Shown: positions 5,436 through 20,954 of the stretch, in pieces
Numbering within the stretch: position 1 is the first letter of the stretch
Layout: each line of letters opens with the position of its first letter
Virus record (IMG/VR): IMGVR_UViG_3300037400_006954
Length of the DNA stretch: 64,000 nucleotides
Reading direction: 5' to 3' (one strand)
From: an uncultured virus (IMG/VR IMGVR_UViG_3300037400_006954)
Taxonomy: Duplodnaviria; Heunggongvirae; Uroviricota; Caudoviricetes
Position numbers and translations under genes: made by a program
Notes under the pieces: model-generated
What the model saw: only the letters and a program-made list of their open reading frames with translations
Databases searched by the model: none
Told to the model about the DNA's origin: nothing

Positions 5436-5460
5436 GGCAGTTTTCCTTTAAGATGACAAC

Positions 5461-5489
5461 ATTATAACATATATTTTTAATAAACGCAA
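5461..5489 (-). promoter_or_regulatory. Strong sigma70-type promoter with extended -10 and AT-rich UP element
   Basis: Minus strand TTGCGT-N17(ending TGT)-TATAAT, preceded by A-tracts at ~5500-5535. Confidence 0.75.
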
Positions 5490-5546
5490 TAGGGTGAATA
5501 AATATTTTTTTATTATTTTTATTTTTATACTTTTTATACAATAGCT

Positions 5547-5577
5547 AAAAAAAAAGCCGACTTAGACAAGCCGGCTC
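5547..5577 (-). terminator. Intrinsic terminator
   Basis: AGCCGGCTT-GTCT-AAGTCGGCT hairpin followed by a U-tract on the minus strand. Confidence 0.8.
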
Positions 5578-5582
5578 TTCGT

Positions 5583-6242
5583 TCAGTCCGCAAACTTCAG
5601 TATGTGGTACGCCCGCTCCACGTCTTCCTTGGTGAAGCCTTTCTTGTAGCTGGTGTGCACCACGTATCTTGGATCGAATACGGACAGTATGTCAGTGACC
5701 TCGTCGTCGATTATACAGAAGCTGTAGTCGACACCGCGTTTCCCGAATTTCTTCCTGTTGTTGTCCATCCAGGCCTTTATCTCGTGCCCCCTAAGCGTAT
5801 ATTCACTTATGCCATGGAGAATCATCTCCACGGTGGACAGCATCGGAGTCTGGCCTATGATCAGGTCTTCCGTCTTCTTGCCTACCCGCTCCGCCAGGAC
5901 GTCCCTCCACTTTGCCTGGAAGTCGAACGGCTCGTAGTCAACAAAATGCCTCCAGGAGGAAGATACCACTATCTTGGCGTCTGTCCTGTCTACGAGCTCC
6001 TTGAGGTTGGCCACGAGCTGAGGGTTCAGTCCGTATGCACGCTCATCCGAGCCTCCGCGGAAGTCCGGCCATACCTCGTGCCTGTTGTCGGGCATGCAGT
6101 TCATGACGCCGTCAATGTCGAGGAATATGATCGCCATCTTCTTCCTGGATTTGGTCTTTGCCGCCCTGGCGGTCCTGGACACCCTTGGTCTGGTTGCCGT
6201 CACAGGCTTTGCCTTGGCGCCTTTTGTCGCTTTGGTGCTCAT
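5583..6242 (-). CDS. HAD-family phosphatase of the type associated with RNA repair (HAD_SAK-like)
   Basis: Motifs IFLDIDGVMN, IVVSSSWR, RGHEIKAW, CIIDD, G(F)T. Confidence 0.8.
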   Translation of the reverse strand: MSTKATKGAKAKPVTATRPRVSRTARAAKTKSRKKMAIIFLDIDGVMNCMPDNRHEVWPDFRGGSDERAYGLNPQLVANLKELVDRTDAKIVVSSSWRHFVDYEPFDFQAKWRDVLAERVGKKTEDLIIGQTPMLSTVEMILHGISEYTLRGHEIKAWMDNNRKKFGKRGVDYSFCIIDDEVTDILSVFDPRYVVHTSYKKGFTKEDVERAYHILKFAD

Positions 6243-6298
6243 TGCGCCTCCTTTGAAAATAGCCCGCGGGCCGCAGCAGAGGCCCGCGGGCAAAACCT

Positions 6299-6838
6299 TT
6301 ACTTTACAGTGAACGCCTGCTTGATGTACACATAGGCGTCCCTGTCGTATTCGACCGTGGAACGTCTTGCGTCAGGCGCGCTATCCAAGTTGACGGGCTT
6401 GAACGTCGCCAGGAAGCCGTCCGAAAACCCGGAGACGGCAGCTGCGACAAGCTCCTCGTACTTCTTTGCCTTTGGATACCTTGTGAACAGATAGTCGACG
6501 CCTGTTGCGGCGACGGCGACGCCATTCACGATAAGGGCGGCCTGCCCCTGGTCGATCTTGCCGTCCTGGATGAGCTTGTCAGCGTACACCCTGGCGACAA
6601 CGGTCCACGCCTCCTGAAAGGTGTGTCCGTCTTCCGGAACAACGTCCTTGACGAGGGCGATGACCTCTATGATGGCGTTGCGCGACTTGTCGTCGATCTT
6701 GGTCTCGTTGGCGACGAGCCCGCTTGCACAGCCCACGGCGTATGCAGTGGACTTCATGACATCGACGGTTGGAACCGTCTTGCATCCAGAGAACGCGGCA
6801 ATAACGGCTGCCGCAGCCAGTGTCATTAGCTTCTTCAT
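6299..6838 (-). CDS. Putative lipoprotein
   Basis: MKKLMTLAAAAVIAAFSGC signal peptide/lipobox with its own AAGGA RBS; in frame with the upstream membrane ORF. Confidence 0.7.
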   Translation of the reverse strand: MKKLMTLAAAAVIAAFSGCKTVPTVDVMKSTAYAVGCASGLVANETKIDDKSRNAIIEVIALVKDVVPEDGHTFQEAWTVVARVYADKLIQDGKIDQGQAALIVNGVAVAATGVDYLFTRYPKAKKYEELVAAAVSGFSDGFLATFKPVNLDSAPDARRSTVEYDRDAYVYIKQAFTVK

Positions 6839-9396: not shown

Positions 9397-9473
9397 TGGT
9401 AGACCGCCGGGGACTTGAACCCCGAACCCCGGGCTTAAGAGGCCCATGCTCTGACCAATTGAGCTAGCGGTCC
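9397..9473 (-). tRNA. tRNA-Lys(CTT)
   Basis: Cloverleaf, anticodon loop CTCTTAA, encoded CCA. Confidence 0.95.
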
Positions 9474-9672
9474 GTTTCATGTTAAATCCTTTCTGGCATG
9501 TCAATCCATCCCGTAGCCGTTCCACAGGGGATGATATATTCCGGTCTGGTTCTCCCTTTCGTAGTCGTCGGCGCGTTTCGCGTCTATTTCATCCTGCCAG
9601 GATGTATCCTCGGGCCTGCTGGGCCCGAACTTCTCCAGCTCCTCTACATTTCCCATAGCTCCTCCTTTCAGT

Positions 9673-9900
9673 CTAGTCGGTGTCTGTGAACATGACCCCT
9701 CTGCGCAGGGCCACGAATGCGTCTACCGCACGGTCCCTCTCGGAACCGCTTGTGCATGACATAAGCTTCACCAGGTAGTCCTCGAACTTGCGCTTGCTGC
9801 GGAAGCACAGCCAGGACCCGTAGGCCCTGAATCCGCATCTGCCTACCTTCTTGTCAGACATGATAGGCGTATTGTGCCCGTCTCCTTGCTGTTCGTTCAT
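9673..9900 (-). CDS. Hypothetical protein
   Basis: 75-aa ORF, AAAGGAG RBS. Confidence 0.6.
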   Translation of the reverse strand: MNEQQGDGHNTPIMSDKKVGRCGFRAYGSWLCFRSKRKFEDYLVKLMSCTSGSERDRAVDAFVALRRGVMFTDTD

Positions 9901-9916
9901 GTAAGGCTCCTTTCTT

Positions 9917-9993
9917 TGGTGGGGCTGCCGGGGATCGGACCCGGAACCTACAGTTTAGGAAACTGTCGCTCTGTCCAGTTGAGCTACAACCCC
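9917..9993 (-). tRNA. tRNA-Arg(CCT)
   Basis: Loop TTCCTAA, CCA; atypical T-loop TCCGATC. Confidence 0.9.
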
Positions 9994-9994
9994 G

Positions 9995-10070
9995 TGGTAG
10001 GGACGGAGGGATTCGAACCCTCATTGCTGGCTTCGTAGGCCATGAGTCTATCCAGTTAGCATACGCCCCC
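9995..10070 (-). tRNA. tRNA-Arg(ACG)
   Basis: Loop CTACGAA, CCA. Confidence 0.9.
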
Positions 10071-10072
10071 GT

Positions 10073-10151
10073 TGGGTCGCCGTGCAGGATTCGAACCTGC
10101 GGTTTCCTCGGTCACAACGAGGCGTCTTGACCTGGCTCGACTAACGGCAAC
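10073..10151 (-). tRNA. tRNA-His(GTG)
   Basis: Loop TTGTGAC, G-1:C73, CCA. Confidence 0.95.
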
Positions 10152-10161
10152 ACTGAAATCG

Positions 10162-10237
10162 TGGTGGCGACGGGTGGATTCGGACCACCGACCAACGCCT
10201 TATGAAGGCGCTGCACTAACCGCTGTGCTACGTCGCC
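10162..10237 (-). tRNA. tRNA-Met(CAT), elongator-like
   Basis: GGC acceptor start, loop TTCATAA, CCA; T-loop TCCGAAT. Confidence 0.85.
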
Positions 10238-10410
10238 TAAAATCTACCAGCGGTTCTCAGATGCTTTTAGCACATACTGTGCATCAACCGCAGCCACGGC
10301 ATCATAGGCTTTTGGATTCGACGTGCATATATCTCTTTCGAGCATCGCTTGCACCATTCATGCACGAAGTTTGGTTCTGCCTTACACGTTTCCTGCAAGG
10401 TGGAAAGTTA

Positions 10411-10486
10411 TGGTGGGCCGGAATGGGATCGAACCATTACCGTCGGATTTTCAGTCCGCTGTACACACCGTGTATACGACCGGCCC
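10411..10486 (-). tRNA. tRNA-Phe(GAA)
   Basis: Loop CTGAAAA, CCA. Confidence 0.9.
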
Positions 10487-10487
10487 T

Positions 10488-10565
10488 TGGTTGTCGTGGC
10501 TGGACTTGAACCAGCGAAATGCCGGTGTATCAGACCGGTGCGTTAACCAGCTTCGCCACACGACA
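10488..10565 (-). tRNA. tRNA-Ile(GAT)
   Basis: Loop CTGATAC, CCA. Confidence 0.9.
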
Positions 10566-10581
10566 ATGAAGATTGAAAAAT

Positions 10582-10822
10582 TGAGTCGGCCTGCGAGATC
10601 GCCTCGCAGTGCACACGGGTGCGCCGATCGCTAGAGGTGCGGCCCGTACCTAGGATAGTCCGCACTTATGACGCGCCTTAGCATACTGGCTTTCCCAGTC
10701 CTCCGTCGGGCTTCATCCGCCATCCTGGGTAGCCGTTTTCACTGGCATCCTGTGGCGTCTTGTATCCCGCGTGTGCAAGCTCCCGGCCATTTGCTTGGGC
10801 TTGCGGAACGTCTGCCGACTCG
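10582..10822 (-). ncRNA. Unidentified ~240-nt structured RNA
   Basis: Termini pair (GAGUCGGC/GCCGACUC); internal helices GCAAGC/GCUUGC, ACUGG/CCAGU, GUGCGG/CCGCAC, CUGCGAG/CUCGCAG; non-coding gap within the tRNA array. Confidence 0.55.
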
Positions 10823-10828
10823 AAACCG

Positions 10829-11197
10829 CTACTTCTTCCAGGTGACGAGAAAGTCCCAGAGATCGTCGATCGCGTCTATGCAGGCGTCGATGACGTGGAA
10901 CTTGCCGGTGTCGGTGAGCCTCTTCAGGGCCGCGAGGTAGTCCGACTCCTTGCCAGCGCCGTTGAGGCCGAGCGAGATGTGGGCGACGTAGCTTTCGTAT
11001 TTCTGCCCGTCGAACTTGCCCTTGACCTTCAGTACGCGGAAGGCGTACATCCTGTCCTTATTGGTGGATTTCGACTTTACCAGGGCCTTGATCTCCTTGG
11101 CCGCCGCCGACCTCGTGCTCACTACGGCATTGTCCACGTCGTCGAATTTCTTCTCGAGGTACGCGGCGCTGCCGAATACAATTCCTGTCTCTTTCAT
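10829..11197 (-). CDS. Hypothetical protein
   Basis: ORF from MKETG with AAGGA RBS. Confidence 0.7.
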   Translation of the reverse strand: MKETGIVFGSAAYLEKKFDDVDNAVVSTRSAAAKEIKALVKSKSTNKDRMYAFRVLKVKGKFDGQKYESYVAHISLGLNGAGKESDYLAALKRLTDTGKFHVIDACIDAIDDLWDFLVTWKK

Positions 11198-11235
11198 TGA
11201 ATTGTCCTTTTTTGTCTTTAGGTTACAGGTGACAG

Positions 11236-11311
11236 TGGCAGCCCCAACGGGATTCGAACCCATGTTACCCGGCTGAGAACCGGGTGTACTGGACCACTAT
11301 ACGATGAGGCC
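11236..11311 (-). tRNA. tRNA-Glu(CTC)
   Basis: Loop TTCTCAG, CCA. Confidence 0.9.
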
Positions 11312-11314
11312 ATT

Positions 11315-11392
11315 TGGCAGGGGCGAGGGGACTCGAACCCCCAGATTCCGCCTTGAAAGGGCAGTGACTGTAACCAGTTTGTCTACACCCCC
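11315..11392 (-). tRNA. tRNA-Glu(TTC)
   Basis: Loop CTTTCAA, CCA. Confidence 0.9.
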
Positions 11393-11428
11393 TGAAATCG
11401 TTGCTTTCCGTGCTTGTCCATAGCTATA

Positions 11429-11504
11429 TGGTTGGGGATTCAGGGCTCGAACCTGAAACCTTCTGGGTCAGAACCAGATGCTCTACCGATTGCGCTAATC
11501 CCCA
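11429..11504 (-). tRNA. tRNA-Gln(CTG)
   Basis: U1-A72, loop TTCTGAC, CCA. Confidence 0.9.
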
Positions 11505-11507
11505 GTA

Positions 11508-11589
11508 TGGTGCGCGATGAGGGACTCGAACCCCCACGCCGAAGCAGCGGAACCTAAATCCGCCGTGTCTGCCATTTCACCAATCGCGC
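11508..11589 (-). tRNA. tRNA-Leu(TAG)
   Basis: Long variable arm, loop TTTAGGT, CCA. Confidence 0.95.
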
Positions 11590-11622
11590 AGACGTACATA
11601 GTATAGCAAAGAGTTGCCTTAA

Positions 11623-11697
11623 TGGCGGGGTATGGCGGAGTCGAACCGCCCTGAGGAGATCGACAATCTCCCATACTAACCGATGTATGAATACCCC
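11623..11697 (-). tRNA. tRNA-Asp(GTC)
   Basis: Loop TTGTCGA, G73, CCA. Confidence 0.9.
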
Positions 11698-11772
11698 TGG
11701 TTGGGCCGGCGGGAATCGAACCCGCGTAGCCCCGATTAAAAGTCGGGTACATGGCCTCTCTGTCACGGCCCA
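11698..11772 (-). tRNA. tRNA-Lys(TTT)
   Basis: Loop CTTTTAA, CCA; abuts tRNA-Asp with no spacer. Confidence 0.85.
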
Positions 11773-11773
11773 A

Positions 11774-11865
11774 TGGCGGAAGGTACAGGATTTGAACCTG
11801 TGGGGGGATTGCTCCCCCGCCTCCTTAGCAAGGAGGTGCTTTAAGCCAAGCTCAGCCAACCTTCC
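11774..11865 (-). tRNA. tRNA-Ser(GCT)
   Basis: Long variable arm, loop TTGCTAA, CCA. Confidence 0.95.
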
Positions 11866-12614
11866 TACAGTTCGACTATGAAGTTGTGCCTGTATCCCGT
11901 TGTCTCCTTGTACGAGATGCTTTCGTACCCGTACGGATTCCTGACGTACCTGGTGTTGCCGAGCCGCATGTCCATGAAGTCATGGCAGTGCCCGTGTATC
12001 CACAGAGGCACGTCTATTGCGGCTATGTCGCCATGGGCCTTCTCCCCCATGACGTAGAACGCCTCGTTGACCTCGCTGTCCGCGTACTTCGGGTCGAGCA
12101 TCTCTATCCTTGGGGCGTGGTGCGTAACGACCACCGGAATCTCGCCGCGAGCCTTGCACGCGCCGACTTCGTCCTCGATCCACTTCAGGTTCTCCCAGAA
12201 GAGGTAGGTGCAGACATACGTGTCGAATCCGGGTATGTAGTTGTAGTCGTTGAGCGCCCTCCTGATCAGCTCGTTGTGCTGTATGGGCGTCCACATCGGA
12301 GAGCATATGAACGTCACGGTCCTGTCGCCGTCCTGCACCGACTCGACGAAGTTGTCCCTCTTGCAGGGCATCTCCAAGTCGTTGAAGTAGTGCATGGCGG
12401 TGTAGTAGTCGTGGTTCCCCTTTACTGCCACTATCCTCCCGAACTTGCCGCCCACGGCCTCTTCCAGGACCCTCCGTATCTCGTGCCAGTTGTCCCTGGT
12501 TCCCAGGTCGCCGGCCACGACCAGCACGTCCGCGGGCTCAAGGCTTCCGACGTCGAACGACTTAGGAAGCTCTCCGCCCGGGCAGTGCAGGTCGCTTACG
12601 ATGCTTATCTTCAT
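11865..12614 (-). CDS. Calcineurin-like metallophosphoesterase
   Basis: Motifs SDLH, AGD, GNHD, THHAP, HGHCH, NPYGY. Confidence 0.92.
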   Translation of the reverse strand: MKISIVSDLHCPGGELPKSFDVGSLEPADVLVVAGDLGTRDNWHEIRRVLEEAVGGKFGRIVAVKGNHDYYTAMHYFNDLEMPCKRDNFVESVQDGDRTVTFICSPMWTPIQHNELIRRALNDYNYIPGFDTYVCTYLFWENLKWIEDEVGACKARGEIPVVVTHHAPRIEMLDPKYADSEVNEAFYVMGEKAHGDIAAIDVPLWIHGHCHDFMDMRLGNTRYVRNPYGYESISYKETTGYRHNFIVEL

Positions 12615-12615
12615 G

Positions 12616-13797
12616 TCAGTCCTTCTGCTTGAGGAGGTATCTGTTGGACACCGCCTTGAAGCTTACGAACGGGCCGTCGTCGCAGGACTTGAACACAAGT
12701 CCCTCGCGCTCGTGGCCACGTGCGGTCTTACCCTCGGCGAACTTGAGCATCTCGTCCATGGACGTTATCTCGTCGAACACCTTCATGAACTTGTTGACTA
12801 CCGGGACATATGGGATGCCCAGGTCTTCGCACAGGTCCTGCGCGTGGCCTGGCATTAGGAACCACTGGTTCTTTATGTCCCATATCCTGAACACGTGCCA
12901 TTCGAACTCGGTGTACAGGTCGCGGTTGCCGTTGACTCCCGGACCGACCAGCTCTCCCTGGAACGCCAGTTCGGTGTGGCTCATCGCGTTTGCCTTGGCC
13001 AGCTTCTCACGAAGGCCGTACTTCTCGGCTACCTGCCAGGGCACCGGCGTCGCGCCGCTCTCCATCTTTGGCTTGAGCCTGAGATTGCGGGAGCAGACCC
13101 CGAACGGATTTTCCGGGTCCACTTCCGCGGACAGGAACACCGTTACGGAAGAGCCGTCGTTCTTCTCCGTCACCTCGAACGCCCTGCCCTTCATCTTCTC
13201 GAAGTAGTCCCCGAGGTTCTGGATGCGCTCCTCGTCGGTCTTAGGTATGAACTCCGACGGGAACTTGCCCATCGCGTCGGCGGAAACCGGATTGCCTCCC
13301 GACGCGGGCCTGAGGGCTTCGGCCACCTCGTCGTAGTGCTCAACCTTCAGAATCTTGGTGACGTCCGCCCCGACCAGGGGCTCAAGTGTGATGTCCATCC
13401 CCTCGCTCTCAGGGTCGCGCTTCAGGTACACGCCCTTGTCGTCCGACGTTATCCTGTCTGTGATCTCCTTGAACTGGTCTATCGGCATGAGCAGCCCCTG
13501 GGAGATGACTCCGCGGAGCTTGCATGTCTTTATCTTCAGGCCTTCCTTCAGCACCTGCCCGCTCTTCGAGACGAACTTCCTGAGGCACCTCTCCCTGAGG
13601 AACTCGTACCTGGGGTCGTCTGCCGGCAGGTAGCTGTCAATCTCGAAGTAGACGGCCCTGTCCCCGGGCTTGTACTCATCGCGTCCGGTGACTATCTTCC
13701 AGCCCTTGCCCACCATCGTAGCGACGGAGAGCCTGTCGGTATCCGGTATCGGATCGCACGTCGCGATCTCCACGACGCTTGCCAGCTTTCTTGACAT
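12616..13797 (-). CDS. ATP-dependent RNA ligase, DRB0094-type (N-terminal OB domain + nucleotidyltransferase)
   Basis: RKLASV...VYFEIDS...KLRGVISQGL OB domain; PKTDEERIQN, TEKNDGSS (motif I), QGELVGPG, REGLVFK, SFKAVSNRYLLK. Confidence 0.93.
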   Translation of the reverse strand: MSRKLASVVEIATCDPIPDTDRLSVATMVGKGWKIVTGRDEYKPGDRAVYFEIDSYLPADDPRYEFLRERCLRKFVSKSGQVLKEGLKIKTCKLRGVISQGLLMPIDQFKEITDRITSDDKGVYLKRDPESEGMDITLEPLVGADVTKILKVEHYDEVAEALRPASGGNPVSADAMGKFPSEFIPKTDEERIQNLGDYFEKMKGRAFEVTEKNDGSSVTVFLSAEVDPENPFGVCSRNLRLKPKMESGATPVPWQVAEKYGLREKLAKANAMSHTELAFQGELVGPGVNGNRDLYTEFEWHVFRIWDIKNQWFLMPGHAQDLCEDLGIPYVPVVNKFMKVFDEITSMDEMLKFAEGKTARGHEREGLVFKSCDDGPFVSFKAVSNRYLLKQKD

Positions 13798-13824
13798 TTT
13801 GTGTTTCCTTTCTTCTTTAAGTTA

Positions 13825-13898
13825 TGGCTGCGGCAGCTGGATTCGAACCAGCGCACACGACTTCAAGGGACGCCGTGCTACCACTACACCATGCCGCA
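13825..13898 (-). tRNA. tRNA-Gln(TTG), atypical
   Basis: Loop CCTTGAA (C at 33), U-U mismatch in anticodon stem, CCA. Confidence 0.75.
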
Positions 13899-13900
13899 AA

Positions 13901-13977
13901 TGGTGGACCTGGAGGGACTTGAACCCCCGACCAGATGATTATGAGTCATCAGCTCTAACCGACTGAGCTACAGGTCC
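13901..13977 (-). tRNA. tRNA-Ile2(CAT, lysidine type) or Met
   Basis: GGACC acceptor, loop CTCATAA, CCA. Confidence 0.85.
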
Positions 13978-13979
13978 AG

Positions 13980-14068
13980 TGGCGGAGAGTGAGGGACTCG
14001 AACCCCCGTGCCCTTTCGGACAAACGGTTTTCAAGACCGCCCCGGTATGACCACTTCGGTAACTCTCC
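13980..14068 (-). tRNA. tRNA-Ser(TGA)
   Basis: Long variable arm, loop CTTGAAA, CCA. Confidence 0.95.
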
Positions 14069-14074
14069 TTGAAA

Positions 14075-14149
14075 TGGCTGCCTAGGTAGGATTCGAACCT
14101 ACGACCTTGGAGTTAACAGCTCCCTGCACTACCGCTGTGCTACTAGGCA
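14075..14149 (-). tRNA. tRNA-Asn(GTT)
   Basis: Loop CTGTTAA, G73, CCA. Confidence 0.92.
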
Positions 14150-14728
14150 TCAAATCGTAACAAACAAATCGTCGTATTCCTTGGCACGGTCCGCCGCGCC
14201 GTCGGAAACTACGTACCCGCAGGGCTTGGACTCCGGGCACCTGCCCCTGTAGATGCAGTTTGGCACACAGTACTGAACCACTATGGGGTCTACCTTCGCC
14301 ACTGCGTCGAGGATCTCCTGCATGCGCTTCCTGGTCTCCGGGTGCGCCATCCCGCACAGCCTCCTCCGGGCCATGTAGATGAGCTCCAGGGCGTTTACCT
14401 GGCAGTCCAGCGGAACCGAAGTGCCCTGCGGCATCTCGTCCCTTGGAAGCGGGTTGTCGTGCCTGTCGTCCCTCGACGACCCCTGACCCCACGTGACCCC
14501 GAACTTGTGCCGCGTGAAATGCGCCGTCATCCAGTACTTTATGTCCGGCTGGTGTATGTAGTACTCTACCAAAGCCAGCGGGCCGTGCTCTGCCCTGCAC
14601 AAAGCGTGCTTAAACGCGTCGCTGGGCTCCTTGTCCGTAGAGCCCTTCCACATTGTGTTCCTGCACATCCTGAGAGCCCTCTCCCACGAACCTGGGACGA
14701 GCTCAGCCGTTATAGTCTTGTCGCTCAT
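14150..14728 (-). CDS. thyX: FAD-dependent thymidylate synthase-like protein (divergent)
   Basis: AEHGPL, HFTRHK-x7-SSR, NALEL...RRLC, C-terminal CxYRGxCPE. Confidence 0.7.
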   Translation of the reverse strand: MSDKTITAELVPGSWERALRMCRNTMWKGSTDKEPSDAFKHALCRAEHGPLALVEYYIHQPDIKYWMTAHFTRHKFGVTWGQGSSRDDRHDNPLPRDEMPQGTSVPLDCQVNALELIYMARRRLCGMAHPETRKRMQEILDAVAKVDPIVVQYCVPNCIYRGRCPESKPCGYVVSDGAADRAKEYDDLFVTI

Positions 14729-14740
14729 GTCATTCTCCTG

Positions 14741-14817
14741 TGGCGCGTCTGGAGGGACTCGAACCCACAACGAGCGGATTAGAAATCCGCTGGTCTATCC
14801 TGTTGACCTACAGACGC
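14741..14817 (-). tRNA. tRNA-Arg(TCT)
   Basis: Loop TTTCTAA, CCA. Confidence 0.93.
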
Positions 14818-14842
14818 ACGTTTTACATTTCAGTAAATCAAG

Positions 14843-15021
14843 TCCCGATGCCAAACAGAGGCCAACCAGCGGCCTCATGGCAAAGCCCGTCGGGAGCGGG
14901 TATGCTCTTATAGTTTAACGCCGCAAAGAGTCAGTCGTTCAGGCGCCGCCTTGTCCGGTGATCAGGCCGGAAAGGCAGTGAAGGTCACACGGAGGACGAA
15001 GGATCCGTGGTTGGACTCTGC
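14843..15021 (-). ncRNA. Unidentified ~180-nt structured intergenic RNA
   Basis: Helices AGAGUC/GACUCU, CACGGA/UCCGUG, GCCUUUCCGG/CCGGACAAGGC, UCCCGA/UCGGGA, GAGGCC/GGCCUC. Confidence 0.4.
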
Positions 15022-15079
15022 ATTATCCTTGGCCCGGGATGCCCCGGAGTCGCGATCTCGCCATGCAGTGGAAGTAGCG

Positions 15080-15619
15080 TCACTGGTACCGTCTGTCGCT
15101 CTGGATTATGCCGTACTTGTGGAAGTACGCGAGCGGCCTCATCTTCCTTACCTTGCCCGAAGGGTCGTTTGCCCTCGGCACGTAGAACCCCCACTTGTGG
15201 TACTTCTTCCCCTCTAGCAGTAGCGTCCACGCCCCCTCTTTTGGGATGTCCAGGAAGTGCTTCGCGGTGGCTTTCGAGAACCACACCGAGTTCTTCCAGT
15301 TAAGCAGGCAGTGCAGCGAATTGAACATGCCGGCGACGAATATCTTTCTGTTGTTGGACGCCGACGGCTTCTTGTCGGGGTCTATCGGGACCACGTTCCT
15401 GTAGTACCCCTTGAGAACTATGCTCAGCAGGTTGGCGCTGTGGTCGTGGAAGAACCTCCTGTCGTCGGACCTAAGCCAGTGGTGGAACCTTATGCTCCTG
15501 CCGAACAGGATGAACGTGTACCTGACCAGGTACGGGTTCCTTGGGTCGCCGAGCCTCTCGGCCCACCGGACCTGGAACCACTTCCCGAACGGTCTCGTGT
15601 CTGATGAACCTGTGCTCAT
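15080..15619 (-). CDS. Hypothetical phage protein, cupin-like
   Basis: PYLVRY...IRFHHWLRSDDRRFFHDH...IVLKGYY...H...AWTL...WGF. Confidence 0.6.
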   Translation of the reverse strand: MSTGSSDTRPFGKWFQVRWAERLGDPRNPYLVRYTFILFGRSIRFHHWLRSDDRRFFHDHSANLLSIVLKGYYRNVVPIDPDKKPSASNNRKIFVAGMFNSLHCLLNWKNSVWFSKATAKHFLDIPKEGAWTLLLEGKKYHKWGFYVPRANDPSGKVRKMRPLAYFHKYGIIQSDRRYQ

Positions 15620-15637
15620 TGCAACTCCTTTCGTAGA

Positions 15638-15817
15638 TGGTCGGCGTGGCGGGATTCGAACCTCGCGGAGACGTGGCCTACGCCCCCGTGTAGCCAGCGC
15701 GAATTAACGCATCTTAAAGCTATTCGCCATCCTCCCCTTGTTCAGGCACTTGCCGATTGTCAGCTGATCTCGGCGGTGAACCCTCGGGGCGTGCTATCCT
15801 GTTACACCATCACGCCG
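15638..15817 (-). ncRNA. tRNA-like RNA with ~100-nt insertion replacing the anticodon loop
   Basis: Acceptor CGGCGTG/CACGCCG-A-CCA, D-arm GGTGTAACAGGATAGCAC, T-loop TTCGAAT; GCCCC/GGGGC stem encloses a long insert. Confidence 0.7.
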
Positions 15818-15825
15818 TTTGAAAA

Positions 15826-15901
15826 TGGTCAGGCCGGGAGGACTCGAACCTCTCGATCGAGCACCGGCGCCTTAGCTGTCGGCACCGGCTACGGCAGCCT
15901 G
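15826..15901 (-). ncRNA. D-armless tRNA-like RNA
   Basis: Acceptor CAGGCTG/CGGCCTG-A-CCA, T-arm GAGG-TTCGAGT-CCTC, single 8-bp hairpin CCGGTGCC/GGCGCCGG with 9-nt loop; no D stem. Confidence 0.6.
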
Positions 15902-16024
15902 GTCAATTGCACCAGGTCCCCGTCGCTCTCCTTCTCCATGTAGTCCGTGCGGATACGATCGCTTTCCGCCCGTGTTTTAAGGAGATGTGCAAACCCTTAC
16001 ACCTCGGCCCGTTAATAAGATTCG

Positions 16025-16879
16025 CTAGAACGGAAACTCCTGTACCTGCAGTCCGGCTCTTGCAGCCGTATCCGCGGTAAGCGGCTGGCCTATGATTCGC
16101 ATGAGCTCCTCTCGCTGCTCGGGGGTTATCTCTATTGAACGCCCTCCGGGGCATGCCTGGCTTGGAATGTCGGCCGAGGCTCCGGCGGAAACCGGAGAAC
16201 CGGGATCCGCGCGCAAGTCAGTGTCCATGCCCATGCCGGCCGTGCATGCGCTTCCGCCCGCGTCTGGGCTTAGCGCGAAGTCTCCGCACACGTAGCGCGG
16301 CACGGCTTCGAACGGCGCGGCACCGAGATGCCATGGCGGCACGGCGCTGAACGGATTCCTCATGAAGTCCGTATCGTTTCCGATGCGGATTGATATGCCG
16401 TCCCAGAAGTCCGCCCTCTTTGGAACTATGTGGCTCGACGCGTCGCTGAAGAGCTTGTCCGAGTCGTACCTAACGTCACTCATGCTCATCTCTCCGCGCT
16501 TGTACGCTCTCATGGACATCCTGTCGAACACGTTGCCGCCGAACGGAACGTAGATGTGCACCGACCGGTCTAGCCCCACGTATGCACATGCCGCAACCGG
16601 GATCTCGTCATTGCCTCCCGCGCCAAACCACAGCACCGGCACCCCGTTGGACAGCCTGTAGTATCCGGTGATCAGGCCGCTAAGCCCGTCTACGTAGTTT
16701 CCTCCGCCGTCGGGGTCTATTACCCTGTCCCGCCCGAATTTTACGCTTCCCTCCAGGTCATACCTGATGCGTTCCAGGCAGAGTATGTCCTTGATTCCGA
16801 ACTCGTAGCCCTTTATGCTGGTGTCGAGCGTCTGCTCGCTGCACCCCTCCAGGGCAAAAAACCTACTTTCCGATTCCAT
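16025..16879 (-). CDS. Hypothetical protein
   Basis: ORF from MESESR with AAGGAG RBS. Confidence 0.7.
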   Translation of the reverse strand: MESESRFFALEGCSEQTLDTSIKGYEFGIKDILCLERIRYDLEGSVKFGRDRVIDPDGGGNYVDGLSGLITGYYRLSNGVPVLWFGAGGNDEIPVAACAYVGLDRSVHIYVPFGGNVFDRMSMRAYKRGEMSMSDVRYDSDKLFSDASSHIVPKRADFWDGISIRIGNDTDFMRNPFSAVPPWHLGAAPFEAVPRYVCGDFALSPDAGGSACTAGMGMDTDLRADPGSPVSAGASADIPSQACPGGRSIEITPEQREELMRIIGQPLTADTAARAGLQVQEFPF

Positions 16880-16896
16880 TGTTGATTCTCCTTTCA

Positions 16897-16985
16897 TGGT
16901 CGCCGGGGGTGGATTCGAACCACCGACGGTTTCGCAATGAGGGCAGATTTACAGTCTGCTGCAGTCGCCACTGTGCCACCCGGCG
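16897..16985 (-). tRNA. tRNA-Tyr(GTA) with C1-G72
   Basis: Loop CTGTAAA, long variable region, CCA. Confidence 0.9.
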
Positions 16986-16994
16986 TATTTGAAA

Positions 16995-17074
16995 TGGTGG
17001 ATCCGAAGGGAGTCGAACCCTCTGTGTGTCTGCTTGCAAAGCAGATGCCTTTGCCACGCTCGAGCCACGGACCC
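16995..17074 (-). tRNA. tRNA-Ala(TGC)
   Basis: G3-U70, loop TTTGCAA, CCA. Confidence 0.92.
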
Positions 17075-17082
17075 GTTGAAAA

Positions 17083-17158
17083 TGGAGCCTGGTGAGGGAT
17101 TCGAACCCCCGAGATACCTCATTACAAATGAGGCGCAGTGCCGCTGTGCCAACCAGGC
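17083..17158 (-). tRNA. tRNA-Thr(TGT)
   Basis: Loop TTTGTAA, CCA. Confidence 0.92.
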
Positions 17159-17178
17159 TAGTGACAAGCGGAATAGGT

Positions 17179-17248
17179 GAGCGGGGCGTACTGTGGTGGG
17201 GGACGAAGTCCTCCGGTTGTTGTGAGATTATAGGAACGCCCTGTGCTC
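17179..17248 (-). ncRNA. GUUCCUA-stem RNA, copy H (short payload)
   Basis: GAGC-ACA-GGGCG-UUCC-UA ... UA-CGCCC-C-GCUC. Confidence 0.75.
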
Positions 17249-17255
17249 GAAAGAG

Positions 17256-17342
17256 CTGCGCGGGGAGTATGTCTACCTTACCAAGGTGGGCTTCAGGGAT
17301 TTTGGCCCCGAAGTATCCATAATAGGAACTCCCTGTGCGCGG
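17256..17342 (-). ncRNA. GUUCCUA-stem RNA, copy G (hairpin payload)
   Basis: GCGC-ACA-GGGAG-UUCC-UAU ... AUA-CUCCC-C-GCGC. Confidence 0.75.
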
Positions 17343-17351
17343 AAATCGTGT

Positions 17352-17428
17352 TGGTCGGAGCGGAGGGATTTGAACCCCCGACGGTCTGCTCCCAAAGCAG
17401 ATGCACTACCAGGCTGTGCTACGCTCCG
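17352..17428 (-). tRNA. tRNA-Pro(TGG)
   Basis: Loop TTTGGGA, CCA. Confidence 0.95.
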
Positions 17429-17726
17429 ACTGCTTGAGCTCGGCTATTGCGTCTCCAAGCGACTCTATCGCCTTGTTCTGCTCCTTGGTATAGCCGTAGT
17501 CCCCTGACGGGAACGCAAATTCGAACATGCCGCACATGAGGACCAGGTTCACGTCCGAGAGGGACTCCAGGTCCGTGTGGCCTATGCGGTTGATCATCAT
17601 GTAGTGCGAGAGTATCGAGCTCCTCATGCTGGAGCCCCCGTAGGTCAGCGTGACGTGCGTACCCTCGAACACCCTAACCAGGGCCTTCATGCGCCTGATG
17701 ATCGTGTTTCTGAGCTTCTTTGTCAT
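17406..17726 (-). CDS. Hypothetical protein (3' end overlaps tRNA-Pro)
   Basis: 106-aa ORF, AAAGGAG RBS. Confidence 0.6.
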   Translation of the reverse strand: MTKKLRNTIIRRMKALVRVFEGTHVTLTYGGSSMRSSILSHYMMINRIGHTDLESLSDVNLVLMCGMFEFAFPSGDYGYTKEQNKAIESLGDAIAELKQSERSTAW

Positions 17727-17747
17727 GTCGTACTCCTTTCGCTAAGT

Positions 17748-17824
17748 TGGAGCATCAGAACGGACTCGAACCGTCAACCTTCTCCATGGCAAGGAGACGC
17801 TCTGGCCGATTGAGCTACTGACGC
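17748..17824 (-). tRNA. tRNA-Gly(GCC)
   Basis: Loop TTGCCAT, U73, CCA. Confidence 0.93.
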
Positions 17825-17832
17825 GCTGAAGA

Positions 17833-17907
17833 TGGAGCATCCAGCGGGAATCGAACCCGCATCACCAGCTTGGAAGGCTGAGACCCTGACCGTTGGATGA
17901 TGGATGC
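17833..17907 (-). tRNA. tRNA-Gly(TCC)
   Basis: Loop CTTCCAA, U73, CCA. Confidence 0.9.
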
Positions 17908-17915
17908 GGTGAAAT

Positions 17916-17992
17916 TGGTAGGCGATGAGGGACTCGAACCCCCGACCTTGACCGTGTAAAGGTCCTGCTCTGACCGACTGAGCTAACCGCCC
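17916..17992 (-). tRNA. tRNA-Val(TAC)
   Basis: Loop TTTACAC, CCA. Confidence 0.93.
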
Positions 17993-17993
17993 G

Positions 17994-18070
17994 TGGTAGC
18001 GGGGGCAGGATTCGAACCTGCGAATGCTGGCTTATGAGGCCAGTGACGTTGACCACTTGTCTACCCCGCA
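17994..18070 (-). tRNA. tRNA-fMet(CAT), initiator-like
   Basis: 1:72 mismatch, GCGGGG acceptor, loop CTCATAA, CCA. Confidence 0.85.
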
Positions 18071-18209
18071 GTCAGTAAATCGAATAAGCGCGGGATCTTA
18101 CCGCTCCAGGCCTAAGACACCGAACAACCTGGCCTGGCTTTTCTCGCTTTTTCGAAGCGATGCATGGACCGGACCCTGCGGGCGAATGCACAGGCCCGGT
18201 CCGGAGAGC

Positions 18210-20108
18210 CTACGAGAACAGCTTTATCAGCGTGTCCTTCTCGAGCTTCGTGAGGTCAAGCCCCGGCTCGACGACCTTCTCCGGATTCTCCGGATCGACC
18301 GCCTTCTCGGGATCCCACACGGTAAATCCCGCGCGGAGCAGGATCTCCTTGAGCGGGACGAACCCCTCGGCGCGGGCCTTGATGCCCTCGATCACGTTCT
18401 CAGCGTACTTGCCGCCGACCGACACGCGGCCGCGGGCCGTGCCGAGGTCCATGAGCGTGAACCTGTCGTTCAGTATCACCCCGATGGACTTCTCGCCCTG
18501 CCCCTGGAAGTCGACCATGACGTCGAACTTGATCTTGTCGGGGTCTACCATCCTGCCCTTCGGCCAGCTCCTGTCGAACTTGTCGTTCGCGAAGAAGAAC
18601 CGGAACTTGGAGTCGTCGTCGCCGTTGAACTTGTTGAGCTTCACGATTCCGTCGGGGCAGGACTTGGCGATGTACAGCAGCTCCACCGCCTCCGGGTTGG
18701 CATTCGTCATGTCCCCGGAGTACACTACCTTGCTGCCGTCGCCGCTGTAGCCCCTGCCGAAACCATAGTACGCTGCGTTCCAGCCGATCTTGCCTCCGTC
18801 GATGCTGACCATGCTCAGGTCGTAGTCCCTGGTGCCCCATTCGTTGCGCCAGTATACTCCGACGATGTTGTCGCTGGTGAGCCTGAAGGACGTTCCGTAC
18901 GGGAAGTTCCCGACGAAGTTCTTCTCTGACGTGGGAAGGGCTATCTCGTAGTTCTCCGGGAACCTGACCGTGCAGGCCTTGTTCCTGATGGAGTCCACGA
19001 GCGACTCCTCGAACGCGAAGTACAGCTGGGACAGGCGGTCCTGGTCGTACTTGGGGGCATAGCCCTTGCGCACGAACATCTTGCCGTTCCTTATGATGTA
19101 CATCGAGTCCTCGGGCTTCCTGGCCATCCTCGACTTGAGGAGCATCATGATCCTGATCTTGCGCCAGGGATCCAGCTCTGGGAGCCTGTCGCGCACCTCC
19201 GAGACCGTGGCCTTGGAGGAAAGCAGGTTTTCCCAGAACCCCGGCTTCATCGGCCTGTGGTTCTTCGCCGCCAGCCTCCTGAGCTTGTTGATGACCGACG
19301 CCGTTGAGGCCGTCTTCATCGCCAGGAAGATCGGCTTGAACCTCAGGAAGATCCTGGACAGCCTCTCGAGCTGCCTGTCGGTCAGCGAGAGGAGCGGGGA
19401 CTTGGCCTTGCGGCGCTCGTCCTCGAACAGGCTGGTGCCGTACTTTATGTCCTGGAGCGCCTTTCTGCTCTTGATCACCATCGGCGACCCGCTGTACTTG
19501 AAGACCAGCGTCCTGAGCATGCCGAACTCGTCCGCGGGAAGGACCCCGGCCTTGTCGCTCAGGTACACCGTCGCCTCCCTGTTCTTGATCTCGGAGATCA
19601 GGTTGGAGAGGTCGTCCTTTGAAAGCTTCGAACCCTTCTTCTCGTACCAGAAGTCCGTCATGTCCTTCATCGTCCTCTCCTTGAGGGCGATTCCGGACTT
19701 GACGACCTCCATGCACTTCTCCGCAAGCTCGTCCTCAGAAATGGGCTCGAGAACCTGCATCTTCCTGAACGCGTCCGGCATGGGGTCGGAGTTCGGAACG
19801 TAGCCGTTGCCTTCCGGCTCCCTGCCCTCCTCAAGCTCCCCGTACGTCGTGGCGTAGTGGAGCAGCTGGTCCAGGAGCAGCTCCAGCCTGCTCTTGCTGA
19901 CGACGTCCTGCCACTCCTTGTAGAACGTCGCGTTGTGGTTCCTCGTAAGCGTCCTGAGCCACGCCTCGACGGACTTGTTGCAGCAGTCGGGGTGGACGAT
20001 CCAGCCCAGGGGGGCGGACACGGAGTTTACCTCCGAGAAGTCGACCTTCTCCGATGCGTCCGAGACCGGGCCCCGGCGGAAGTAGTCGATGATTGACGCG
20101 CTTGTCAT
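18210..20108 (-). CDS. 632-aa protein: helical N-terminal region + C-terminal TerD-like domain; candidate divergent Ro/TROVE-like RNA-binding protein
   Basis: C-terminal IVGVYW...DYDLS...GWN...YSGDMTNA...ELLYI matches the TerD pattern; N-terminal NATFYK.W...DQLLHYATTYG and helical, basic segments; directly downstream of the RNA array. Confidence 0.6.
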   Translation of the reverse strand: MTSASIIDYFRRGPVSDASEKVDFSEVNSVSAPLGWIVHPDCCNKSVEAWLRTLTRNHNATFYKEWQDVVSKSRLELLLDQLLHYATTYGELEEGREPEGNGYVPNSDPMPDAFRKMQVLEPISEDELAEKCMEVVKSGIALKERTMKDMTDFWYEKKGSKLSKDDLSNLISEIKNREATVYLSDKAGVLPADEFGMLRTLVFKYSGSPMVIKSRKALQDIKYGTSLFEDERRKAKSPLLSLTDRQLERLSRIFLRFKPIFLAMKTASTASVINKLRRLAAKNHRPMKPGFWENLLSSKATVSEVRDRLPELDPWRKIRIMMLLKSRMARKPEDSMYIIRNGKMFVRKGYAPKYDQDRLSQLYFAFEESLVDSIRNKACTVRFPENYEIALPTSEKNFVGNFPYGTSFRLTSDNIVGVYWRNEWGTRDYDLSMVSIDGGKIGWNAAYYGFGRGYSGDGSKVVYSGDMTNANPEAVELLYIAKSCPDGIVKLNKFNGDDDSKFRFFFANDKFDRSWPKGRMVDPDKIKFDVMVDFQGQGEKSIGVILNDRFTLMDLGTARGRVSVGGKYAENVIEGIKARAEGFVPLKEILLRAGFTVWDPEKAVDPENPEKVVEPGLDLTKLEKDTLIKLFS

Positions 20109-20145
20109 TGTTTTTTCTCCTTTTTTGTTGTTGAAGACGTAAAAT

Positions 20146-20202
20146 GCCGCGGGCCGTATGGATTCTTGGTGAAGAAGTTTTCATAGGAACGGCGGATGCG
20201 GC
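20146..20202 (-). ncRNA. GUUCCUA-stem RNA, copy F (short payload)
   Basis: GCCGC-AUCC-GCCG-UUCC-UAUG ... CAUA-CGGC-CC-GCGGC. Confidence 0.75.
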
Positions 20203-20216
20203 GACGTAAAAGGAAA

Positions 20217-20338
20217 TGCGCGGGACGTATAAAGGCGCTCTACCATCTGAGCTACCTAGAGAGGCGAGCCTCCCCGGGGTGGGATTCGAACCCACGACTT
20301 CCTGGTTGCGAGCCATTGATAGGAACGTCCTGTGCGCA
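20217..20338 (-). ncRNA. GUUCCUA-stem RNA, copy E, carrying a circularly permuted tRNA-like domain (YrlA-like)
   Basis: GCGC-ACA-GGACG-UUCC-UAU; T-arm GUGGG-UUCGAAU-CCCAC, then loop-closed acceptor, then D-arm GCUC-AGAUGGUA-GAGC; AUA-CGUCC-C-GCGC. Confidence 0.85.
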
Positions 20339-20343
20339 AAGGG

Positions 20344-20426
20344 AATCGGCGAACGGTAGTATCGGGCCGGGCCTTTCACCCCGGCGTTGTTCTTGTTTGT
20401 CTGATAGGAACCGTATGTGCCGATTT
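20344..20426 (-). ncRNA. GUUCCUA-stem RNA, copy D
   Basis: AAUCGGC-ACAU-ACGG-UUCC-UAUC ... GAUA-CU-ACCGU-UC-GCCGAUU with internal GCCGGG/CCCGGC hairpin. Confidence 0.7.
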
Positions 20427-20435
20427 AAATCGAAC

Positions 20436-20561
20436 CTGCCTGCGGGCCGTATGCAGTGCTCTACCATTGAGCTACGCGGTCCAGCGGCCGCGGCGGGGGT
20501 CGAACCCGCGTCCATTCATGAACAGTGAATTTTTTGCATTAGGAACGGCGTGTGCAGACAG
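20436..20561 (-). ncRNA. GUUCCUA-stem RNA, copy C, carrying a circularly permuted tRNA-like domain (YrlA-like)
   Basis: CUGC-ACAC-GCCG-UUCC-UA; T-arm GCGGG-UUCGACC-CCCGC, then CGCGG/CCGCG closed acceptor, then D-arm GCUC-AAUGGUA-GAGC; UA-CGGC-CC-GCAG. Confidence 0.85.
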
Positions 20562-20575
20562 CTGCTGGAAAATGG

Positions 20576-20690
20576 CGAGGCGACGGGTATCGGTTGGGGA
20601 CGCGGGAGTCGAACCCGCTGCTTCCGGCCCTTCAGGCCGGCGGTCTGCCGGTGACCTAGTCCTCGGGAATTAGGAACCCGATGTGCCTCG
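20576..20690 (-). ncRNA. GUUCCUA-stem RNA, copy B, enclosing a non-permuted tRNA-like cloverleaf (GAA loop)
   Basis: CGAGGC-ACAU-CGGG-UUCC-UA; D-arm GGUC/GACC, arm CCGGC-CUGAAGG-GCCGG, T-arm GCGGG-UUCGACU-CCCGC; AUA-CCCG-UC-GCCUCG. Confidence 0.8.
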
Positions 20691-20707
20691 GTTTAAAGCG
20701 ACTAAAA

Positions 20708-20762
20708 GGCGGGCCGTATGGTTGATTTCCAGTCAAGCGTATGATAGGAACGGCCTGTGCCC
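20708..20762 (-). ncRNA. GUUCCUA-stem RNA, copy A (short payload)
   Basis: GGC-ACA-GGCCG-UUCC-UAU ... AUA-CGGCC-C-GCC. Confidence 0.75.
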
Positions 20763-20925
20763 GTGTAAATCTAGAAGGCTCCTTTCTGCGACACGAAAGG
20801 GTAAACAAACGCAGCTTTTACGGATCGTCTCGGTCAGGAGCCATGGATCCCGAGTGCGGGGGAATCGGAAACCCCGCAAGTTATTGTTTCAACCAAATCC
20901 AGTTTTCAAAGATCAACTGGCAGAT

Positions 20926-20954
20926 ATTATACGAAATCTGCTCCCGATTTGCAA
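20926..20954 (-). promoter_or_regulatory. Sigma70 promoter probably driving the RNA array, the TerD-like gene and the tRNA cluster
   Basis: TTGCAA-N17-TATAAT on the minus strand with AT-rich upstream region. Confidence 0.8.

Follow-up and report, generated by a model that had tools for sequence, protein, structure and literature searches.

The 64,000-nucleotide (nt) stretch of the uncultured caudoviricete IMGVR_UViG_3300037400_006954 (hereafter the window) carries at positions 20146-20762, directly upstream of a gene for a protein of 632 amino acids (aa), a series of short elements that share the minus-strand word GTTCCTA. This raises the question whether the elements are genes of small RNAs and whether these RNAs and the protein belong together in the way Ro60 and its Y RNAs do. 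A preliminary description of this DNA had read them as a non-canonical, Ro-like system with several RNAs, and this reading is supported by the comparative analyses presented here, with binding and the formation of discrete transcripts being what we infer. The paired structure common to the elements, referred to as the handle, almost certainly defines a real RNA family, which is absent from Rfam 15, and very probably works with the helical+TerD protein encoded next to it.

Inspection of the window located GTTCCTA on the minus strand at positions 17231, 17323, 20184, 20320, 20405, 20540, 20671, and 20745, and all eight positions previously reported for its plus-strand form TAGGAAC were exact. 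In the whole window the word has 11 matches on both strands (5.27 ± 2.28 expected), a number reached by 2 of 100 shuffled sequences, so that the count alone is weak evidence. The case is carried by the clustering of 8 of the 11 words within 3.5 kilobases (kb) on one strand and by the matching 3' half of each. In all eight clustered copies this half has the form (A/C/G)UAC-N4'-C-GC and is joined by an outer stem of 4-8 base pairs (bp). With boundaries set by a script that extends pairs outward, the units are 56-126 nt long with payloads of 26-91 nt, six of them lying at 20146-20762 and two at 17179-17340, and unit 6 as the last one before the gene ends approximately 37 nt ahead of its start codon. 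The units and the partner gene are as follows, with model matches referring to the covariance model introduced below:

20707-20762, minus strand: unit 1, 56 nt with a 27-nt payload, a hairpin with the 7-nt loop CUGGAAA; model match at 20702-20766 (38.2 bits, E 2e-7), in the training set.
20576-20690, minus strand: unit 2, 115 nt, whose handle stem encloses a tRNA-like body of ordinary order that is called as tRNA-Phe GAA (20592-20665); tRNA model 47.3 bits.
20436-20561, minus strand: unit 3, 126 nt with a permuted payload of T arm, closed acceptor stem, and D arm plus an extra hairpin with 7-nt loop; Rfam YrlA 34.9 bits at 20457-20514.
20344-20425, minus strand: unit 4, 82 nt with a 47-nt payload, a G+C-rich hairpin; model match at 20342-20426 (28.6 bits, E 7e-5), outside the training set.
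20217-20338, minus strand: unit 5, 122 nt with a permuted payload of T arm, 10-bp closed acceptor-like stem with a CUCG loop, and D arm; Rfam YrlA 30.8 bits at 20232-20303.
20146-20202, minus strand: unit 6, 57 nt with a 26-nt payload and the internal loop AUC; model match at 20142-20205 (39.3 bits, E 1e-7), in the training set.
18210-20108, minus strand: gene of the 632-aa partner protein, with the ribosome-binding site AAGGAG before the ATG at 20108.
17258-17340, minus strand: unit 7, 83 nt, between tRNA-Pro and tRNA-Thr; model match at 17253-17344 (33.4 bits, E 4e-6), outside the training set.
17179-17248, minus strand: unit 8, 70 nt, inside the tRNA array; model match at 17174-17252 (37.3 bits, E 3.5e-7), outside the training set.

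From the outside inwards, the handle is built of the outer stem (4-8 bp), ACA opposite a single C, four variable pairs followed by an invariant G:C pair, the bulged UUCC, and UA paired with UA. The outer stem has a different sequence in each of the eight units, the 5' internal loop is ACA in seven of them and AUC in unit 6, and minimum-free-energy folding recovered the outer and inner stems in all eight. It had been stated before that the stems vary yet always pair around a constant GUUCCUA, that one copy deviates from an otherwise ACA-type loop, and that the inner stem comprises 4-5 bp. The first two statements were confirmed in the complete set, and the third is explained by a mismatch of the first inner-stem pair in four of the eight units. 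Among known motifs that were considered for the handle, a bulge-helix-bulge splice motif was rejected owing to the position of both bulges on the same strand and a K-turn owing to the absence of tandem G.A pairs, and a T-loop reading of the GUUC segment is speculation in which positions 57 and 58 do not fit.

Loci encoding relatives of the partner protein (numbered with the prefix L) were collected from two sources. The viral set consists of 80 IMG/VR stretches, and for the genome set species-representative genomes were scanned with a 14-sequence alignment, which yielded 276 stretches encoding relatives, of which 80 were kept and none was used for training. Exact GTTCCTA words number 191 in L001-L083 and the window segment together, and a complementary 3' half accompanies 142 of them; the consensus of the family reads outer stem - GCA(N)A - N4 - GUUCCUA - payload - (U/A)UAC - N4' - CGC - outer stem. 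Seventy-one units with short payloads, two from the window and 69 of 74 from the loci, were combined in one alignment, from which L005:2840 (wrong partner), L034:4124 (inside the gene), L050:7489 (far downstream), and the near-copies of L067 at L073:2790 and L073:2848 had been dropped. Pairing in this alignment amounts to 94.2% of the cells compared with 72.1% after shuffling (none of 500 shuffles reaching the real value) and 34-48% in slid controls, and double changes occur in 239 cells compared with 71 in the shuffles. Because the units had been selected on three inner-stem pairs, only the outer helix and pair 13-67 allow a fair test in this alignment. Pairing in the outer helix reaches 89%; its pair 9-69 is CG in 64 and UA in 7 sequences, and its pair 8-70 is GC in 53 and AU in 16.

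The covariance model was built from this alignment, and thus mostly from genomes other than that of the window. Applied to the window it recognized five units (E 1e-7 to 7e-5, all on the minus strand), three of which were absent from the training set; with filters off, no further match appeared in the 64 kb, and the three units with payloads of 82-91 nt were missed, unit 2 because of its long insertion. A second, independent alignment of 98 distinct matches (E ≤ 1e-5) from the genome loci, which are fitted to the model, showed 97.9% paired cells compared with 78.0% in shuffles (0 of 500 reaching the observed value), 264 double-change cells compared with 72, and compensatory changes at 9 of the 12 pairs. 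GUUCCU(A) is invariant in the eight window units and in both the 71- and the 98-sequence alignment. The covariation that the preliminary description had proposed to look for is therefore strong in two collections of sequences. Rfam searches at the gathering threshold returned only tRNAs in the window (n = 27) and only tRNA-type matches in 11 loci with handle RNAs (n = 118).

The distribution of the handle follows that of the protein gene. In the viral set the exact word on the gene strand has a density of 1.78 per kb in the 1 kb upstream of the gene, compared with approximately 0.03 per kb at a distance from the gene or on its opposite strand, and it is present upstream in 45 of the 71 viral loci that have 1 kb of upstream sequence. 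The covariance model (E ≤ 0.01) found 146 matches in 60 of the 80 viral loci, and in the genome set 125 matches in 74 of the 80 loci, nearly all directly upstream of the gene or just after it. Every match in either set lies on the gene strand, and the linkage to homologues of 18210-20108 that had been named as a check is thereby established. A locus has up to ten RNAs and often one to three. The cultured Synechococcus phage S-CRM01 has three RNA matches upstream of g174 and one just after it, Synechococcus phage S-CBWM1 has one that ends 9 nt before gp22, and phage Phass-1 has three downstream of the homologue. One further occurrence concerns a contig binned to a Methanobacterium metagenome-assembled genome (L116, 2834-2949), which encodes a protein of 36% identity and has RNA matches of 61.3 and 41.1 bits; it could represent an archaeal virus or a binning error.

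A linkage of this kind might also arise if the handles were cis-acting operators in the 5' leader of the mRNA of the protein, which would autoregulate its translation or stability, the payloads being incidental. This explanation agrees with the position of most copies within 1 kb upstream on the gene strand, and in the window it agrees with the short distance between unit 6 and the start codon and with the single promoter-like site before the array:

20926-20954, minus strand: sigma-70-like promoter TTGCAA-N17-TATAAT upstream of the array, matching 10 of 12 consensus positions (consensus match alone).

The array is hence flanked by this site and the 632-aa gene, as had been described, and no terminator-like site was detected on the minus strand from the promoter-like site through the array to the gene. 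However, units 7 and 8 are located about 1 kb past the far end of the gene among tRNA genes, and units also follow the gene in L048 (5063-5289), L041/L056 (4761-5472), L001 (5658-5716), and L003 (7982-8388). Each unit is moreover closed by an outer stem of its own sequence, the payloads include conserved tRNA-like bodies, and the short units of Chryseobacterium are preceded by a unit built on a tRNA body whose ends are those of an ordinary tRNA. An operator function thus appears unlikely, and even if it were true the protein would still bind the handle.

The AlphaFold model of the partner protein (predicted local distance difference test 92.6, predicted template modeling score 0.91) comprises a helical N-terminal domain (residues ~1-378), a TerD-fold domain (~409-576), and a short C-terminal helical part. 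In the fold search residues 409-576 matched TerD structures (2qz7, 2kxt), and the helical domain had no clear fold match. According to the model, the protein thus shares the beta-sandwich of the TerD family (tellurite resistance and Ter stress proteins), but differs from that family by the fusion to a 380-residue helical domain, by the lack of a Pfam TerD (PF02342) match at E ≤ 1, and by its context of RNA repair and tRNA arrays instead of a ter operon. Foldseek with the whole model gave only rows with a template modeling (TM) score ≤ 0.16, including neurotoxin and coat proteins, which were deemed meaningless with the exception of a local TerD-like match to 2qng. Nothing usable was obtained from Pfam, PHROGs, and NCBIfam (only PF08472, E 0.18, and phrog_4105, E 0.024), and sequence searches of the PDB with the single protein and with a profile had no matches.

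The family is large, with 1260 representative clusters (50% identity) at E ≤ 1e-3 and 742 at E ≤ 1e-30, and includes members in cyanophages, in rumen and gut phages, and on the chromosomes of cultured Flavobacteriia. For a Chryseobacterium member more than 2091 relatives exist, and the 120 listed are all named “hypothetical” or “uncharacterized” and have no Pfam domain on record. Conserved columns of the protein are rich in Arg, Lys, Asn, and aromatic residues. In the ESM Atlas a neighboring cluster contains TerD in 22% of its members, which is a lead only, and a structural likeness (TM 0.70 by query over ~580 residues) to Actinomycetota proteins named “MXAN_6230/SCO0854 family RING domain-containing” hints at a wider superfamily with a RING-fused branch.

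In several respects the system resembles Ro60 and its RNAs. As described in bioRxiv 10.1101/312249, the genes of Rsr, YrlA, and YrlB are neighbors of RtcB, and in YrlA the T arm is followed by an acceptor loop and then by the D arm, and the anticodon stem runs toward the Rsr site; some jumbo phages encode ROT/TROVE, as stated in PMC7824862. Here, too, one protein gene is located next to several small RNAs, the paired RNA ends form a conserved helix (a putative protein site in our case) with a variable module at the other end, the locus often includes at least one permuted tRNA-like RNA (T arm, closed acceptor, D arm), and RtcB or other RNA ligases are found nearby, also in phages. In contrast to Ro60, which consists of TROVE and vWA, the partner protein has no detectable TROVE or vWA and is predicted to combine a helical domain with a TerD fold, and the handle (GCA-N-A / N4 / G-UUCC-UA ... 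UAC / N4' / CGC) is unlike the Ro60 motifs GNCGAAN0-1G of bacteria and GGUCCGA of vertebrates that are quoted in PMC4201824. TerD in place of vWA and the deviating handle had both been pointed out at the outset, the latter for the invariant GUUCCU(A). Further differences are the up to ten RNAs per locus, the many payloads that are hairpins of 15-30 nt, and YrlA scores below threshold.

It could be argued from the shared features that the system is an ordinary member of the known family, in which the protein has diverged very far from its Ro60/TROVE homologues and the RNAs from other Y RNAs. The Pfam TROVE model (PF05731) does not match the partner even at E ≤ 1, though, and hhalign gave a probability of 0.2% between the family alignment and a TROVE alignment that is itself narrow (effective number of sequences 1.4). 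No Ro60 chain was among the top 50 of either wide fold search, and the C-terminal domain has the TerD fold and not that of vWA. TROVE is also absent from all five whole phage records and from four of five bacterial genomes carrying the partner family. The fifth, Chryseobacterium gambrini, encodes the helical+TerD protein at one locus and a canonical TROVE/Ro60 protein of 513 aa at another (L164/L165), which demonstrates that the two systems can coexist; a comparison of names suggests that several other Chryseobacterium species carry both as well. With regard to the RNAs, the Rfam model YrlA (RF02553) scored 34.9 and 30.8 bits on units 3 and 5 compared with a gathering score of 69, and only its positions 23-86 (the tRNA-like core) were involved. 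Since junctions of ordinary neighboring tRNA genes reach 25.5 and 23.9 bits with the same model, its signal merely reflects a T arm followed by a D arm. No other Rfam family matched the units. Together with the dissimilar RNA motifs, these results make descent from Ro60 very unlikely.

The payloads extend from short hairpins to permuted or whole tRNA-like bodies, which corroborates the range from short loops to tRNA-like domains perceived initially. In the window, units 3 and 5 contain the permuted order from T arm through a closed acceptor-like stem to D arm, and the five units other than these two and unit 2 have hairpin payloads. Among 120 unique units across the loci, 10 have the permuted payload (T arm, acceptor loop, D arm) and four a whole tRNA-like body nested in the handle, as does window unit 2. 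In a third arrangement a tRNA body retains ordinary ends and the handle hairpin caps the anticodon position, so that the 3' half of the handle precedes its 5' half. Besides examples in L046 and L064, this form is found at the following places:

L138, 2432-2540: tRNA body capped by the handle.
L145, 2657-2756: tRNA body capped by the handle.
L139, 2501-2614: tRNA body capped by the handle.

These three arrays, from Chryseobacterium and Pontimicrobium, open with an RNA of 100-114 nt that matches the whole tRNA model and receives no call from Aragorn. In both the permuted and the capped arrangement the handle prolongs that arm of the tRNA-like body which faces away from its acceptor/T-arm end. 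Taken together, the payloads include short hairpins rich in A/U or G+C, hairpins resembling an anticodon arm, and tRNA-like bodies whose order is either permuted or ordinary. Independently of these counts, Synechococcus phage S-CBWM1 has two annotated pseudo-tRNAs (L002, 7117-7293) just downstream of the homologue gp22 and of gp23, which, instead of being tRNA genes in decay, may encode tRNA-like partner RNAs.

The position of the handle at the place of the anticodon loop or an intron in the capped forms would also fit an explanation in which the handle is a processing signal of unusual pre-tRNAs, from which the protein would excise it before RtcB or a phage ligase rejoined the ends into working tRNAs. 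An adjacent ligase gene is compatible with this, and certain algae and archaea have permuted tRNA genes of which the order seen here is reminiscent. Yet 99 of the 120 unique units contain neither a T nor a D arm motif and the median payload is 26 nt, removal of the handle leaves no visible ordinary 7-nt anticodon loop in L138, and both bulges lie on one strand in a manner unlike a bulge-helix-bulge splice site. A nuclease fold was not among the matches of the protein model either, which by itself decides little. Such a pre-tRNA role is hardly probable on this evidence.

The genomic neighborhood connects the system with RNA repair. In Flavobacteriia isolates the order is rtcB, RNAs, partner gene, rlaP. 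The Ro-like reading gains independent support from this placement of the gene and the RNAs between rtcB and rlaP. According to bioRxiv 10.64898/2025.12.29.696909, RlaP adds one or two nucleotides to cleaved tRNA halves ahead of ligation. By a tblastn census, 17 of the 80 genome loci have RtcB on the gene strand no more than 3 kb away, and the same holds for RlaP in 10 of the 80. The RNA ligase type of the window has relatives within 3 kb of the partner gene in four of the 80 viral loci, and within this distance one or more tRNA genes are present in 27 viral and 13 genome loci (of 80 in each set). Additional neighbors are a Pnkp-type ligase domain in Marivirga, an R2K ATP-grasp protein in Chryseobacterium, and a Band_7 gene in Pontimicrobium, the latter being the only such neighbor in 160 loci (one tblastn query). 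In this Pontimicrobium locus (L139), about 19 tRNA genes lie upstream, and downstream of the partner gene a weak tRNA hit (4821-4887, 33 bits) and the Band_7/SPFH gene (5430-6527) may constitute a predicted Band-7/b7a-tRNA pair beside the helical+TerD system.

Pairs of a scaffold and tRNA-like RNAs beside RtcB have been proposed before, namely Rsr with YrlA/YrlB and Band-7 (SPFH) with b7a-tRNA (Burroughs and Aravind 2016, cited in bioRxiv 10.1101/312249). By the same source, the second of these represents another non-Ro scaffold candidate with a tRNA-like RNA in RtcB operons and is in that sense similar to the system described here. It differs in that our partner protein lacks Band_7 (no Pfam hit) and that its RNAs, most of which do not resemble tRNA, have a handle of their own. 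The least probable explanation is a pair of the type III toxin-antitoxin kind, in which the RNA array would neutralize a harmful protein as ToxI repeats neutralize ToxN: a structured RNA array directly upstream of a protein gene on one strand and the involvement of phages and defense or conflict contexts are reminiscent of it, but stems and payloads differ from unit to unit instead of being repeated almost identically, the units often number only one to three, the ~600-aa protein (632 aa in the window) has no similarity to small ToxN-type RNases in Pfam (PADLOC not searched), and the system is conserved inside rtcB-rlaP operons, so that such a pairing is most improbable.

A Y-RNA-like particle outside the TROVE family, acting in tRNA damage or repair, is the explanation we regard as reasonably probable, with binding and function belonging to its conditional part. 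It rests on the observed RNA structure family and its covariation, on the strict linkage and co-orientation with the protein family, and on the genomic settings, complemented by the predicted domain folds of the protein (helical and TerD-fold). The eight units would be genes for small non-coding RNAs of 56-126 nt, whose 5' and 3' ends pair into the handle around a variable payload, and processing into discrete RNAs would be expected. Direct binding of the handle by the 632-aa protein is likely, and several different RNAs would in that case be carried by one and the same protein, as YrlA and YrlB are by Ro60/Rsr. With somewhat less assurance, we favor a role of the particle in damage and repair, where its targets would be tRNA and other RNA that has been damaged or cleaved; its partners would be the RtcB ligase and the RlaP nucleotidyltransferase in bacteria and the phage tRNA set and RNA ligase in phages. 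Payloads of tRNA shape might serve as adaptors that recruit or position tRNA-recognizing enzymes.

Several points weigh against this explanation. The predominance of payloads without a tRNA motif (99 of 120) means that tRNA mimicry is not the whole story. Twenty of the 80 viral and six of the 80 genome loci gave no match with the model; upstream sequence is short in 7 of the 20 (<100 nt) and 2 of the 6 (less than about 160 nt). Moreover, the loci with matches overstate the number of independent events, which is not 134, because near-duplicates or related loci (L005/L006, L010-L012, L030/L060, L046/L047) and many Chryseobacterium species are among them. The selection of the first alignment on inner-stem pairs and the fitting of the second to the model belong here as well. 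RtcB and RlaP were found within 3 kb in none of the viral loci and only in loci of the Flavobacteriia type (tblastn with few queries). The TerD fold, as portrayed in PMC7824862 and in structure titles, is known for Ca2+ binding and for stress and conflict systems and not for RNA binding. Finally, DNA runs from bovine and other gut metagenomes contain the stretch, and three metatranscriptome runs from two studies have short contigs, 90-99% alike, on parts of the 632-aa gene and, weakly, on 20222-20391; as proof of RNA these contigs fall short, since DNA carry-over cannot be excluded and RNA ends, strand, and level cannot be read from them.

The loops of the payload hairpins led to a more far-reaching version of the particle model. 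Seven-nucleotide loops of the pattern Y-U-NNN-R-A occur in 50 of 300 unique units (window and L001-L163) compared with 11 ± 3 in mononucleotide shuffles (maximum 22, n = 200); the control being simple and the payloads A/U-rich, this excess is a lead only. The commonest are CUUUUAA (9) and CUGUUAA (5), which correspond to the anticodon loops of tRNA-Lys(UUU) and tRNA-Asn(GUU), both of them attacked by known anticodon nucleases. The anticodon-loop pattern Y32-U33-NNN-R37 is likewise fitted by the invariant G-UUCCUA(U) with the 5-bp stem that closes it. These two features prompt the tentative idea, which we consider possible but doubtful, that, in addition to Ro60/Y RNA and Band-7/b7a-tRNA, a third particle of scaffold and RNAs has evolved independently in conflicts over RNA damage, one whose protein displays a library of mimics of tRNAs and anticodon arms. 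If this were true, the RNAs would be decoys or tripwires for anticodon nucleases, by which phages with large tRNA arrays would blunt tRNA-cleaving defenses of the host and bacteria would detect or cushion attack by ribotoxins and supply the RtcB/RlaP repair pathway, and the TerD domain would couple the particle to a metal or nucleotide signal.

Ro60 and the Y RNAs are the only well-studied bacterial example of a protein armed with interchangeable tRNA-like RNAs, whose role beside RtcB is unsettled. The occupation of the same genomic niche by a different protein fold and a different RNA handle points to a convergent use of RNA-loaded scaffolds in tRNA damage responses. What looks new is a structured RNA family linked to a large unnamed protein family, whereas a scaffold protein with tRNA-like RNAs in RNA repair looks to be of a known kind. 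A literature search yielded no description of this protein-RNA pair, although an earlier mention in Burroughs and Aravind 2016 (PMC5062991) is possible. For a widespread hypothetical protein within phage tRNA arrays, a first functional lead is thus available, and isolates of Chryseobacterium, Flavobacterium, and Pedobacter as well as the Synechococcus phages S-CRM01 and S-CBWM1 are tractable hosts of the system.

The setting of the array within the window is phage-like, with a family A DNA polymerase, a DnaB-type helicase, and SbcCD-like genes farther along. From 9397 to 20665 Aragorn predicted 28 tRNA genes, every one of them on the minus strand, which cover most amino acids and are interspersed with small open reading frames. 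Two genes for RNA-related enzymes lie within this array:

11865-12614, minus strand: calcineurin-like phosphoesterase (Metallophos, E 2.7e-12).
12616-13797, minus strand: RNA ligase (RNA_ligase, E 1.5e-25) with a PHA02142 OB domain (E 1.9e-27).

The tRNA genes, the RNA ligase, and the phosphoesterase look like a phage island for tRNA supply and repair, and the two enzymes may be tied to the proposed particle. Between the promoter-like site and unit 1, the approximately 150 nt at 20770-20925 contain a G+C-rich hairpin (GCGGGG...CCCCGC) without the handle motif, which could be a leader or a further small RNA.

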